A stretch of DNA of 64,000 bases from Chloroflexota bacterium (GCA_021787445.1 JAJYLV010000001.1:6968-70967); one strand, 5' to 3'. Positions 6,602 to 11,845 are shown, counted from the stretch's first letter. The notes: generated by a model from the letters alone, not told the origin. Translations and numbers: made by a program.

Positions 6602-7105
6602 GTGCGCTTCGGCGATCAGGCCCTGTCGCTCCTCGTCGTCATCCTGGCCGTGGCGGTCGTCGGCCTCGCGGTCTGGGCGGCGGCGCTCCAGCGCACGCTC
6701 TCCGCGATGCGTCGCCGCCTGCGTGCGGCCTTCCGCGGAGGCGGCACGGGCCTCGACGAGGTCCTCGACCGCATCCTCAAGCGCCTCGAGGGGACCGACG
6801 AGCGGCTCGGCGCGCTGAGCTCGCTGCAGCAGGAGCTGGAGGCGCTCCTGCGCAAAGGGACGATCCGCAACGTCGGGATCGTTCGCTTCAACCCGTTCGC
6901 CGATGCCGGTGGCGACCAGTCGTTCGCGATCGCGCTGCTCGATCCGGAGGGCAGCGGCGTCGTCATCTCCAGCCTGCACGCGCGGACGGACACGCGCGTC
7001 TTCGCGAAGCCCGTTCAAGGCGGCCGCTCGCGCTATCCCCTCAGCGACGAGGAGCAGGACGCGATCCGGAGGGCCATGACGCCCGGCGAACGCGCGATCG
7101 GGTGA
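6602..7105 (+). CDS. DUF4446 family protein.
   Basis: The C-terminal region TIRNVGIVRFNPFADAGGDQSFAIALLDPEGSGVVISSLHARTDTRVFAKPV matches the conserved DUF4446 core, and there is an N-terminal TM helix. The start is uncertain; the GTG at 6602 was chosen. The track ORF 5504-7105 is a frame run-on. The stop overlaps the next gene as ATGA. Confidence 0.55.
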   Translation: MRFGDQALSLLVVILAVAVVGLAVWAAALQRTLSAMRRRLRAAFRGGGTGLDEVLDRILKRLEGTDERLGALSSLQQELEALLRKGTIRNVGIVRFNPFADAGGDQSFAIALLDPEGSGVVISSLHARTDTRVFAKPVQGGRSRYPLSDEEQDAIRRAMTPGERAIG

Positions 7106-7998
7106 TCGGGCGCGCGCACGCGTACGCGATCGTCAATCCCGTCGCCGGCCACGGTCGCGGAGCGCGCGTCGCTCGACGTATCGCGCGCGACTTCGCCTCG
7201 GCGGGCATGGTCGTCGAGGTCGCGGTCACGCCTGCGCCCGGCGAGGCCGCCCGGCTCGCCGCCGCGGCCGTCGACGACGGCTACCGCACGATCCTCGCGG
7301 TCGGAGGCGACGGCACGGCCAACGAGGTGGCGAACGGAATGATCGGATCCGGCGCCGCGCTCGCGCTCTACCCGATCGGCAAGGGGAACGACCTGGCGCG
7401 GATGCTCGGCTATCCGCGCGGCCGGCGCCTCCACCGCGTGCCCGCCTGGCTCGCGAACGAAGCGCGGCGGAGGAGGATCGACGTCGGTGAGGTGAACGGG
7501 CGGCTCTTCCTCAACGCGACGGGAGTCGGGATCGACGGGCACGTCGCCGAGCGCATCCGCGCGAGCGAGCGCGTGGTGGGTCAGCGCCTCGCGTACCTCG
7601 TCGGCTCGCTCGTGTCCATCGCGACCTATCGTCCGCAGCCGATGGAGCTGCGGATCGACGGCGCCGCGTCGTTCGGACGTTTCCTCACGGTCATCTCGTC
7701 GAACGGGACCTACTTCGGCGGCGGCATGAAGCCGGCGCCGCGCGCGTCCCTCGACGACGGCGAGCTCGACGTGACGGTCGCCGGGGACCTCTCGCGCATC
7801 GACTCGATCCTCGCTCTCGTGCGCCTCTACTTCGGCAATCACGAGAACGGCACGACGATCGTCACGCACCGCGCACGGTCCGTCGAGATCGAGCTCGAGC
7901 GGACGCTGCCTCTCCAGCTCGACGGCGAGGTCACGCACGCCGACCGCGTGAGCGTCACCATCCGGCCCGGCGCGCTCGACGTCCTCGCCGCGCCATGA
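7102..7998 (+). CDS. Diacylglycerol/lipid kinase catalytic-domain protein (DAGK_cat, YegS/BmrU-like).
   Basis: AIVNPVAGHGRG ... GGDGTANEV ... NATGVGIDG is the DAGK_cat signature. The gene is translationally coupled at both ends. Confidence 0.7.
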   Translation: MIGRAHAYAIVNPVAGHGRGARVARRIARDFASAGMVVEVAVTPAPGEAARLAAAAVDDGYRTILAVGGDGTANEVANGMIGSGAALALYPIGKGNDLARMLGYPRGRRLHRVPAWLANEARRRRIDVGEVNGRLFLNATGVGIDGHVAERIRASERVVGQRLAYLVGSLVSIATYRPQPMELRIDGAASFGRFLTVISSNGTYFGGGMKPAPRASLDDGELDVTVAGDLSRIDSILALVRLYFGNHENGTTIVTHRARSVEIELERTLPLQLDGEVTHADRVSVTIRPGALDVLAAP

Positions 7999-9747: not shown

Positions 9748-9893
9748 GGCCCGGCGGCCCGGAGAGAGAGCGGGGACCGCGTCCGCTGGCGGTGGGCATC
9801 GCGCTCGGCATCTGGATCTCGGTGATGCTGCTCCTCGCCCTCGTCGTCGTGCCGCTCCTCTTCAGCCGCTGCGCGCCCCCGGCCCCGTCATGA
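9744..9893 (+). CDS. Hypothetical 49-aa micro-protein with one TM helix, translationally coupled to selB.
   Basis: The GTG at 9744 overlaps the ridA stop as GTGA. The product is VRPGGPERERGPRPLAVGIALGIWISVMLLLALVVVPLLFSRCAPPAPS. Its stop, TGA at 9891-9893, overlaps the selB ATG at 9890 as ATGA. Third codon positions in the TM part are GC-rich. It is too short to appear in the ORF track. Confidence 0.35.
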   Translation: MRPGGPERERGPRPLAVGIALGIWISVMLLLALVVVPLLFSRCAPPAPS

Positions 9894-11845
9894 GAGCGAC
9901 CGAGGGCGGCGTCCGCGTCGTCGGCACGGCCGGTCACGTCGACCACGGCAAGTCGACCCTCATCAAGGCGCTGACGGGGACAGACCCGGACCGCCTGCGC
10001 GAAGAGCAGGAGCGCGGGATGACCATCGACCTCGGCTTCGCGCACCTGCTCCTCCCGGGTGGGACGGAGGTCGGGATCGTCGACGTCCCGGGCCACCAGG
10101 ACTTCATCCGCAACATGCTCGCGGGCGTCGGGAGCATCGACGCCGTCATCCTCGTCATCGCCGCGGACGAGGGCGTCATGCCGCAGACGCGCGAGCACCT
10201 CGCGGTCCTCTCGCTCCTCGGGATCGAGCGCGGCGTCGTCGCGCTCTCGAAGCGCGACCTCGTCGACGACGAGTGGCTCGCCCTCGTCACCGAGGACGTG
10301 CGCTCCGCGCTCGCGGGGACGCCCCTCGCTGGAGCGCCGCTCGTGGCGGTGTCGTCGACGACGCGCGCGGGTCTGCGCGAGCTCCTCGTGGCGCTCGAGC
10401 ACGTCCTGGGTGACTCGCCCGCGCGGCGCGACCTCGGCCGCCCGCGGCTTCCCATCGATCGCGCCTTCACGATGTCCGGCTTCGGGACCGTCGTGACCGG
10501 CACGCTCGTCGACGGGACGTTCGCGGTGGGGGAGGAGGTCGAGATCGCCCCCGCGGGGCTGCGCGCGCGGATCCGCGGGCTCCAGACGCATGGCCGCTCG
10601 ACGGGCGAAGGGCGGCCGGGGACGCGCGTCGCGATGAATCTCGCCGGCGTCGAGAAGTCGCAGGTGGAGCGCGGGATGACCGTGATCCGACCGGGCAGCG
10701 TGTCACCGCTCTCGGTCCTGGGGCTCCGCCTGCGCCTCGTGGCCTCCGCGAGCGGACCCGTCGAGCACGACGAGGCGGTGAAGGTGCACATCGGGACCGC
10801 CGAGCTGATGGCGCGCGTCTCCGTGCTCGAAGGCGACGCGGTCGCGCCGGGCGAGGAGCGCTGGGTTCAGCTGCGGCTGGCAGCGCCCGTCGTCGCCGTC
10901 GCCGGTGACCACCTCGTCGTTCGGCGGCCGTCGCCGTCGGAGACGCTCGGTGGAGGCGTTGTCGCCGACATCTCCGGCGAGCGCTTCCGCCGACGCGCCG
11001 AGGGCCTCGAGGTCCTGCGCCGGCGAGCGGCGCCGACGCCGCGTGCACGCCTCCTGGCCGTCCTCGACGCGCCGTGGACGCGCGCCGAGGCCGGTGCGCG
11101 CGCAGGGCTCGACCCCGCGGAGCGCGACGTCGCGATCGCCGAGGGCCTCGCCGACGGATCCGTCGTCGAGATCGCCGACGCCCTTCTGGGGCGCGGCGCC
11201 TACGAGGCGGCCGCGACGAGGGTCGAGCGTCTTCTCGCGATGGGTCATCGCCGCTCGCCGCTCCGGGCCGGCGTGCCGCGCGAAGAGGTCCGCGCCGCCA
11301 TAGCTTTACCGCCGAAGCGCGCCGCCGCACTCCTCGCGCGGCTGTCCGCCGAGGGCCGCGTCGTCGAGCGCGGCGCGGCCGTCGCGCTCCCGGGACACGT
11401 CCCGACGCTCAGCACCGAGCAGGAGGCCGCGTGGTCACGGGCACGCGACGCGCTCGCGCGGCAGCCGCTCCAGCCGCCGTCGGCGGCGTCCCTTGCAACT
11501 GATATTGGTATCGACCGCGAGCTCCTGGGGGCGCTCGCGGAGCGCGGCGACGTGATCCGCATCGGGGAGGCGGTGTTCCTTCCGTCGGCGGTGCGCGAGT
11601 TCGGCGAGAAGGTGATCGAGGAGCTCGCGAGCGCCGGCCGTGCGAGCGTCGCGCGGGCACGCGACCTCACCGGGTCGAGCCGCAAGCACGTGCTGCCGTT
11701 GCTACAGTTCCTCGACGATCACGGCCTCACGCGCCGCGTCGGCGACGATCGTGTGCTCGTCCTCGCGCCCGACGCGGCGCGCGCGCGGCTCGCTCGCGTG
11801 ACCAAAGACGCCGCTGTGAGCAAAGGAAGGGAGTCGTCCCCATGA
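9890..11845 (+). CDS. selB: Selenocysteine-specific translation elongation factor SelB.
   Basis: The N-terminal G1 motif GTAGHVDHGKSTLIKALTG and a GTPase domain are present. The long C-terminal region of about 300 aa has winged-helix character, as in bacterial SelB. The total length is 651 aa. Confidence 0.85.
   Translation: MRATEGGVRVVGTAGHVDHGKSTLIKALTGTDPDRLREEQERGMTIDLGFAHLLLPGGTEVGIVDVPGHQDFIRNMLAGVGSIDAVILVIAADEGVMPQTREHLAVLSLLGIERGVVALSKRDLVDDEWLALVTEDVRSALAGTPLAGAPLVAVSSTTRAGLRELLVALEHVLGDSPARRDLGRPRLPIDRAFTMSGFGTVVTGTLVDGTFAVGEEVEIAPAGLRARIRGLQTHGRSTGEGRPGTRVAMNLAGVEKSQVERGMTVIRPGSVSPLSVLGLRLRLVASASGPVEHDEAVKVHIGTAELMARVSVLEGDAVAPGEERWVQLRLAAPVVAVAGDHLVVRRPSPSETLGGGVVADISGERFRRRAEGLEVLRRRAAPTPRARLLAVLDAPWTRAEAGARAGLDPAERDVAIAEGLADGSVVEIADALLGRGAYEAAATRVERLLAMGHRRSPLRAGVPREEVRAAIALPPKRAAALLARLSAEGRVVERGAAVALPGHVPTLSTEQEAAWSRARDALARQPLQPPSAASLATDIGIDRELLGALAERGDVIRIGEAVFLPSAVREFGEKVIEELASAGRASVARARDLTGSSRKHVLPLLQFLDDHGLTRRVGDDRVLVLAPDAARARLARVTKDAAVSKGRESSP

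Follow-up and report, generated by a model that had tools for sequence, protein, structure and literature searches.

A predicted membrane micro-protein gene is embedded between ridA and selB in a selenocysteine operon of Candidatus Limnocylindria

A 64,000-nucleotide stretch of a Chloroflexota bacterium genome (GCA_021787445.1, JAJYLV010000001.1:6968-70967), hereafter the window, carries the selenocysteine (Sec) decoding genes selA and selB within a run of closely packed genes. The two genes are separated by ridA and by a 49-codon open reading frame (ORF), designated the micro-ORF. Comparison with related genomes indicates that the region is the core of a housekeeping operon found throughout the class Candidatus Limnocylindria, comprising in order genes for a DUF4446 protein, a lipid kinase, SelA, RidA, the micro-protein, SelB, PepA and a UvrD-like helicase. 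The same comparison indicates that the micro-ORF is a true gene, encoding a conserved membrane peptide that would span the bilayer once. The features are listed below, with profile matches and their E-values in brackets.

6602-7105, plus strand: gene for a DUF4446 protein with an N-terminal transmembrane segment (Pfam PF14584, 1.8e-35)
7102-7998, plus strand: gene for a YegS/Rv2252/BmrU-family lipid kinase with DAGK_cat and YegS_C domains (TIGR00147, 1.5e-49; Pfam DAGK_cat and YegS_C)
7995-9350, plus strand: selA, L-seryl-tRNA(Sec) selenium transferase (TIGR00474, 1.6e-155; Pfam SelA PF03841, 1.8e-131)
9352-9358, plus strand: Shine-Dalgarno (SD) sequence GGGAGGA for ridA, within the 13-nt selA-ridA spacer (-10.3 kcal/mol against the anti-SD)
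9364-9747, plus strand: ridA, RidA-subfamily enamine/imine deaminase (TIGR00004, 7.5e-48; Pfam Ribonuc_L-PSP, 3e-42)
9744-9893, plus strand: micro-ORF, a predicted gene of 49 amino acids, MRPGGPERERGPRPLAVGIALGIWISVMLLLALVVVPLLFSRCAPPAPS (coding signal, orthologues, substitution rates and an AlphaFold2 helix)
9890-11845, plus strand: selB, Sec-specific elongation factor (TIGR00475, 9.7e-101)
11842-13317, plus strand: pepA, M17 leucyl aminopeptidase (NF002073, 3.4e-133)
13301-16291, plus strand: gene for a UvrD-like helicase fused to a PD-(D/E)XK nuclease (UvrD-helicase, 2.5e-67; PDDEXK_1, 3.5e-32)

SelA scores 518.4 bits against TIGR00474 (cutoff 267.9), with residues 11-445 of 451 covered. 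Its translation contains FSGDKLLGGPQAG, which we take to be the lysine motif for pyridoxal phosphate (PLP), SGDK(L)LGGPQ, by correspondence with K295 of E. coli SelA. RidA scores 161.8 bits against TIGR00004 (cutoff 106.25), and the catalytic-arginine motif PARS is found in its translation (HRPARSTIEV). SelB scores 338.2 bits against TIGR00475 (cutoff 242.25) and contains the Pfam domains GTP_EFTU, GTP_EFTU_D2, Beta-barrel_SelB, SelB-wing_2, and SelB-wing_3, each above its cutoff. With TIGR00474 and TIGR00475 both exceeded, the coordinates and identities that a preliminary description of this DNA gave for selA (7995-9350) and selB (9890-11845) hold. Its assignments of ridA, the DUF4446 gene, and the DAGK-like kinase are likewise borne out by TIGR00004, PF14584, and TIGR00147.

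The genes are arranged in two coupled runs. The first is headed by the DUF4446 gene, which starts at a GTG without a strong SD. The GTG of the kinase overlaps the DUF4446 stop as GTGA and also lacks an SD (-2.4 kcal/mol), and the ATG of selA overlaps the kinase stop as ATGA. The preliminary description had five genes chained by 4-nt overlaps, but the selA-ridA junction is the 13-nt spacer with its SD, where the second run begins. The micro-ORF start overlaps the TGA of ridA as GTGA, and the micro-ORF TGA overlaps the selB ATG as ATGA, both as originally described. The chain extends past 11845 into pepA and the UvrD-like helicase gene, a class-wide syntenic block that the earlier account had missed. 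The ATG of pepA overlaps the selB stop as ATGA, and pepA has a strong SD, GAAGGGAG, at about 11826-11833. The start of the UvrD-like gene is uncertain and overlaps the 3' end of pepA; this gene is the final member of the block.

A 49-codon open frame is uninformative by itself in this window, which is 73% GC and holds dozens of spurious ORFs. The codon pattern of the micro-ORF is specific to its frame. The GC contents of the three codon positions (GC1/2/3) are 0.74/0.58/0.90 in its own frame only, close to the values of about 0.75/0.50/0.92 in the flanking genes. Under a codon log-odds model trained on the flanking genes, the frame scores +12.2, while the other five score between -48 and +2.4. 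A score of +12.2 is reached by just 1.8-2.8% of off-frame 49-codon windows taken from genes outside the training set, and it falls in the lowest 8% of true coding windows.

The micro-ORF also has orthologues. A word-indexed search of 5.8 billion proteins retrieved the micro-ORF itself and two 49-residue homologues with 73% and 71% identity. Both homologues are encoded between ridA and selB with matching overlaps, one of them in a fully syntenic operon. The ORF had been called previously unannotatable; NCBI lists it as a hypothetical protein, KGQ88_08515, from a Chloroflexi metagenome-assembled genome (MAG). Over codons 12-49 of the three orthologues compared, the ratio of nonsynonymous to synonymous substitution rates (dN/dS) is 0.27-0.41 in frame, 0.76-1.07 in the +1 frame, and 3.6-8.1 in the +2 frame. 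The three sequences also show switches between codon families, AGC/TCG for serine and CGC/AGG for arginine. Because the codon pattern and the purifying selection are both specific to one frame and conserved homologues occupy the same slot, the micro-ORF is a real gene. As to the earlier concern that it might be spurious, the frame is conserved at the protein level and the GC3 bias is not equally high in the other frames.

A scan of genome collections with SelB yielded 80 loci. About 72 belong to Candidatus Limnocylindria or to unclassified Chloroflexota, with SelB identities of 63-83%, and eight belong to other Chloroflexota classes, with identities of 46-50%. The order DUF4446, kinase, selA, ridA, selB, pepA, UvrD-like helicase is kept in every Limnocylindria locus in which it can be judged. 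DUF4446 is syntenic in about 55 of these loci, and pepA is syntenic in all loci that reach that far. Searched with a profile of the three sequences, about 55 of some 75 Limnocylindria loci have the peptide immediately ahead of selB (E-values 1e-33 to 2e-5). In every context that can be read, the micro-protein is found only in the slot between ridA and selB.

With starts defined, 53 peptides of 47-65 residues were aligned, so that about 53 of 75 species-level genomes have the micro-protein in this slot. The family shares a charged N-terminus, a P-L-P-x-x-A-T-G-I motif, and a helix of about 23 residues with an invariant tryptophan, followed by A-F-V-V-V-P-x-L-F-x-x-C and a short proline-rich tail. 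In an alignment of 32 members, W24, P37, and F40 are invariant, and A16, L21, A32, V36, and C43 are each conserved at 90% or more. Both sequence and length are free to vary in the first 10 residues and in the C-terminal tail. Pairwise differences at the three codon positions amount to 0.34/0.27/0.43, and conservation of the core persists between loci whose SelB proteins are only about 63% identical.

AlphaFold2 predicts a single helix over residues 14-43, with a predicted local distance difference test score of 93-97 in the core. The Kyte-Doolittle profile has a 19-residue maximum of 2.71. The transmembrane helix is placed at about residues 14-40, in agreement with the single transmembrane helix originally noted for the peptide. 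The helix is kept in all family members. The N-terminus carries a net charge of about +2 and the C-terminal tail of +1, a difference that modestly suggests a topology with the N-terminus inside and the cysteine on the outer face.

A hidden Markov model search of 1.84 billion representative proteins gave 25 matches. Twenty-four are proteins of 34-90 residues with the family motif, and the remaining one, a repetitive protein of 1025 residues, was judged spurious. Since this exhaustive search returned so few matches, the family is small and restricted to its lineage. The single micro-protein sequence has no match in Pfam or NCBIfam, and Pfam searches with the 32 members gave only scattered transmembrane-noise matches with E-values of 0.003 or weaker. 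A profile search of the PDB returned unrelated proteins, the best at E = 0.1. Literature searches found nothing relevant on the micro-protein, on selenocysteine in Limnocylindria, on DUF4446, or on this arrangement of genes. A 90-residue version with an N-terminal CPxCG...CxxC zinc ribbon (P0017, L085:576-911) was not used. It is encoded on a 1.1-kb metagenome scaffold beside a low-GC gene, its upstream part is of different composition, and it is likely a chimera or the product of a miscalled start.

The start sites in the second run fall into two kinds. Scored against a generic anti-SD, the SD duplex energies in the window are -10.3 kcal/mol for ridA, -2.4 for the micro-ORF, -1.7 for selB, and -10.0 for pepA. 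In the relatives, an SD of -7 kcal/mol or stronger precedes 93% of the ridA starts and 100% of the pepA starts, but only 12% of those of the micro-ORF and 10% of those of selB. In 47 of 53 loci, an NTGA overlap joins the end of the micro-ORF to the beginning of selB. The micro-ORF itself begins within the 3' end of ridA in 41 of 53 loci (at -21, -24, or -33 nt) and at the ridA stop codon in 7, the window among them; for starts inside or on the ridA 3' end, an overall count of 46 of 53 was also obtained. Since ridA and pepA have an SD while the micro-ORF and selB do not, the ribosomes that translate selB most likely come from termination at the UGA of the micro-ORF, so that selB would be fed by termination and reinitiation.

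The proposed order of events is as follows. Ribosomes would load at the strong SD of ridA (GGGAGGA), the predicted entry point for the run of ridA, micro-ORF, and selB. Termination at the UGA of ridA would lead to reinitiation at the overlapping GUG of the micro-ORF, and termination at the micro-ORF UGA to reinitiation at the overlapping AUG of selB. The gene for pepA would recruit ribosomes anew by its own SD. As a rule, only some of the ribosomes get through each step of termination and reinitiation, so SelB would be held well below RidA. The micro-ORF would thus act as a cistron that feeds, and probably throttles, the translation of selB.

The RNA of window positions 9735-9960 is less stable than dinucleotide shuffles of itself (z = +1.92; 197 of 200 shuffles at least as stable). 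Such an open RNA is consistent with selection for unstructured reinitiation sites. Overlaps of 4 nt also chain nearly all genes in two other clusters of the window, one at 38721-47027 with trpE(G)-trpD-trpC-trpB-trpA and genes for chorismate mutase, DAHP synthase, and prephenate dehydrogenase, and one at 56543-59407 with the thiamine salvage genes thiD-thiM-thiE-thiW. As these clusters show, genes of this genome are ordinarily joined in this way, and the Sec operon is no exception.

The loci that lack the micro-ORF form one clade. In a neighbour-joining tree of SelB with a Dehalococcoidia root, this clade is nested among lineages that bear the peptide, which indicates that the micro-ORF is ancestral to the class and was lost once. 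An additional locus, L064, may represent a second loss. In the clade, selA and selB have dN/dS values of 0.07-0.12. Because both genes remain under such strong purifying selection, the micro-ORF is dispensable for the Sec machinery as such. The loss clade weighs against a strictly selenium-specific role of the micro-protein and for a modulatory or independent one.

Loci without the micro-ORF begin selB in different ways. In the four loci termed type B (L029, L043, L052, and L082), selB starts at an ATG within the 3' end of ridA (gaATGcat, 22-nt overlap), which in most other species is where the micro-ORF starts. Apparently, a deletion has joined that start to selB. As type B selB uses this same ATG, the site inside ridA would be a working initiation site. 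Three of these loci (L029, L052, and L082) also have a G6/C6 hairpin just before the G domain of selB. In L030 and L050, a GTG lies 10-13 nt past the ridA stop.

The 12 loci termed type C (L008, L012, L013, L014, L018, L020, L023, L025, L027, L059, L061, and L077) are of another kind. Here ridA ends in ...RRNV-TAG, and the selB G domain, RVIATAGHVDHGK, starts about 16 nt further on (L008:5700-5760, L018:5970-6030). The stretch from the last in-frame stop to the P-loop has no conserved ATG, GTG, or TTG, and in 6 of the 12 loci these codons are missing from it altogether. The only conserved codons in the selB frame are an ACG (11 of 12) and an ATC (12 of 12). Yet selB has a dN/dS of 0.07-0.10 in these loci. 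The lack of a start codon together with strong purifying selection points to non-canonical initiation, or to ribosomes that reinitiate once past the ridA stop. Fusion of RidA to SelB by a programmed frameshift was also considered and judged unlikely, as the sequence GTC-TAG offers no slippery re-pairing.

Several other readings of the micro-ORF have to be weighed. The simplest takes it as a pure coupling spacer whose peptide is functionless and degraded. The stop/start overlaps at both ends, the lack of an SD at the micro-ORF and at selB, the clade that has dispensed with the ORF, and the freedom of the N-terminal 10 residues and the C-terminal tail all fit such a spacer. A spacer needs only an open frame, however, and the core amino acids are conserved, with invariant W, P, and F, a near-invariant cysteine, and dN/dS of 0.27-0.41. 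Hydrophobic residues moreover require T at the second codon position, against the bias of a 73% GC genome, and still every member has the transmembrane helix. A mere spacer is thus unlikely, though it is the strongest of the competing explanations. That the ORF is a chance, untranslated frame in a GC-rich spacer is the least credible of all and would be very surprising. Spurious long ORFs do occur everywhere at 73% GC, and the score of the micro-ORF is within the lowest 8% of coding windows, but neither point accounts for codon bias and purifying selection in one frame, or for a length class and overlaps kept in about 53 species-level genomes. These loci are not near-identical copies, given selB identities of 63-83%.

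The 146 nt between ridA and selB might instead be a cis-regulatory RNA, either a hairpin resembling a selenocysteine insertion sequence (SECIS) or an attenuator with a leader peptide. In E. coli, SelB binds an autoregulatory SECIS-like element of the selAB mRNA, and a UGA stop lies exactly at the start of selB here. Against this, Rfam finds nothing in the spacer at the gathering score or at E-values up to 10, the region is less stable than its shuffles as given above, and RNAalifold on 16 diverse loci gives -6 kcal/mol with essentially no covariation past the UGA. No terminator-like site is present in 9700-9950, and the overlap of the ORF with the selB start leaves no room for such a site. We regard a regulatory RNA as highly improbable. 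A role of the micro-protein as a dedicated selenium-metabolism factor, either as a thiol near the membrane surface that would capture or pass on selenium or as an anchor holding SelA, SelB, or RidA at the membrane, is also doubtful, though less remote. Its occurrence only between ridA and selB, the near-invariant cysteine after the transmembrane helix, and the restriction of the family to the lineage that keeps the Sec operon would favor it. The sister clade without the peptide nonetheless keeps selA and selB under equal selection, the cysteine is F or L in 4 loci, and adjacency is weak evidence in an operon that also holds the unrelated pepA, UvrD-like helicase, and lipid kinase genes. Equally doubtful is a bolder combination, in which the micro-protein would be a lineage-specific selenium-handling part whose cistron also meters SelB synthesis, and its loss would have forced selB onto makeshift initiation sites, such as the ATG inside ridA or a site with no canonical start codon.

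The reading preferred here combines a class-wide operon, a genuine micro-protein gene, a serial relay of ribosomes to selB, and a function in the membrane; taken together, these are probably correct. The preliminary description had not decided between a coupling device and a real membrane peptide for the ORF, and the conservation of the peptide and the absence of an SD at selB support both at once. That the micro-protein would also act as a protein in the membrane is suggested by a sequence conserved far beyond the needs of a coupling spacer and by a hydrophobic helix kept against a strong GC mutational bias.

Some observations weigh against this combined reading. A whole clade lacks the micro-ORF, so it is not required in principle for the expression of selB, and the SelB tree that places this clade is a rough neighbour-joining tree without support values. 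The first 10 codons of the micro-ORF are unconstrained (dN/dS >1); in most relatives they overlap ridA, from which the apparent conservation there comes. The conserved cysteine is replaced by F or L, as mentioned, in 4 loci. The generic anti-SD used for scoring may not be the 3' end of the 16S rRNA of this lineage, and both the translation of the micro-ORF and its coupling to selB are predictions from sequence. The completeness of the Sec pathway is judged only by selection on selA and selB, with selC, selD, and selenoprotein genes unlocated.

That selection is strong. The dN/dS values of selA and selB are 0.18-0.19 between the window and its close relative L001 (selA 0.19, selB 0.18) and 0.07-0.12 in other pairs, comparable to the values of ridA and pepA. 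For DUF4446, the value is 0.18 (window versus L001). RidA is 92% identical in L001 and L002, with a dN/dS of 0.08-0.16. The PLP-lysine motif of SelA and all domains of SelB are intact. The preliminary description had raised the possibility that the module is a relic; dN/dS values of 0.07-0.19 for selA and selB across the class speak against it, and argue indirectly for an active Sec pathway.

The partner genes were sought in and around the window. No tRNA-Sec is detected by ARAGORN or Rfam in the 64 kb, which contain only two tRNA(CAT) genes, and none is present in 44 related loci. Pfam finds no SelD of the AIRS type among the approximately 58 proteins of the window. Neither selC nor selD was found in the 10 kb beyond its right edge, examined in a near-identical MAG. 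A scan for in-frame TGA codons flanked on each side by coding signal yielded a single candidate, at 54289; it lies upstream of a GTG-started gene for a low-molecular-weight phosphatase/ArsC-like protein and is not a convincing selenoprotein. The earlier statement that the window contains no tRNA-Sec, selD, or obvious selenoprotein gene is in accord with these searches.

The module shares its main layout with the E. coli selAB operon, in which selA also lies upstream of selB, presumably on one transcript, and selC and selD are located at separate loci, as they are absent from the window here. Two differences are apparent. The Limnocylindria operon has ridA and the micro-ORF between selA and selB and comprises at least eight genes, and no SECIS-like leader structure is detectable in it.

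The gene for ridA directly follows selA in all of about 65 Limnocylindria loci that have both. RidA resembles the RidA/YjgF/TdcF deaminases, as it scores above the TIGR00004 cutoff and has the PARS arginine motif, and differs from them in its fixed position directly after the gene of a PLP enzyme. An aminoacrylyl-tRNA is an intermediate of the SelA reaction, and RidA clears free 2-aminoacrylate. One hypothesis is that RidA could quench aminoacrylate side products of SelA. No description of selA-ridA adjacency or of a link between RidA and SelA was found in the literature searched.

The predicted coupling is of the type known from ATGA/GTGA junctions of the E. coli trp operon, with 4-nt NTGA overlaps (47 of 53 loci) and downstream cistrons without an SD. 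It differs in having two serial steps through a 49-codon relay cistron, a feature deduced from the gene arrangement. The micro-protein itself is reminiscent of KdpF, CydX, AcrZ, and MgtS. Like these, it has fewer than 60 residues and one transmembrane helix that is its most conserved part, and its gene is embedded in an operon and easily missed. It differs in lacking similarity to any Pfam, NCBIfam, or PDB entry and in its restriction to one class. In addition, its immediate neighbors RidA and SelB are soluble, and no partner membrane complex is evident.

Other features of the window and its relatives lie outside the operon. A probable gene of about 110 amino acids is present on the minus strand at 6230 to about 6565, divergent from DUF4446. 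The N-terminus of its product, ERPERTERPERVERSRPERGERR, is strongly basic and repeat-like, a transmembrane helix, GKVIVAVLVLLGLSGVAVNAFVK, lies at the C-terminus, and the gene has a GC3 of 0.87-0.97; a gene of 109 amino acids is called at the matching place in L001. Given this gene, only about 36 nt are left for a promoter of the DUF4446-selA operon. Of 36 Limnocylindria loci scanned, about 30 (L007:2259-2334, L010, L011, L016, L022, L033, and others) have a tRNA-Val(CAC) gene some 0.5-2 kb upstream of DUF4446. The window and its nearest relatives, L001 and L005, have no such gene there. One of the tRNA(CAT) genes, at 31248-31322 on the plus strand, adjoins and overlaps the predicted start of tilS (31296-32756, plus strand). 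It may encode tRNA-Ile2(CAU), the substrate of TilS, rather than tRNA-Met, and the true start of tilS is probably downstream of 31322.

SelA, SelB, and RidA are unremarkable within their families, and the micro-ORF resembles known micro-protein genes embedded in operons while fitting no described family. The value of these findings is incremental, and current understanding is not overturned by them. Small membrane proteins are under-annotated. This one, with its set place in the genome, about 50 independent orthologues, and a clade that has naturally lost it, would provide a clean test case for the function of micro-proteins and for serial coupling as a means of setting a low level of SelB. 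The constant adjacency of selA and ridA could reflect the quenching of side products proposed above. The selenocysteine machinery is a conserved and selected trait across this poorly studied class of Chloroflexota, which is abundant in soil and freshwater.

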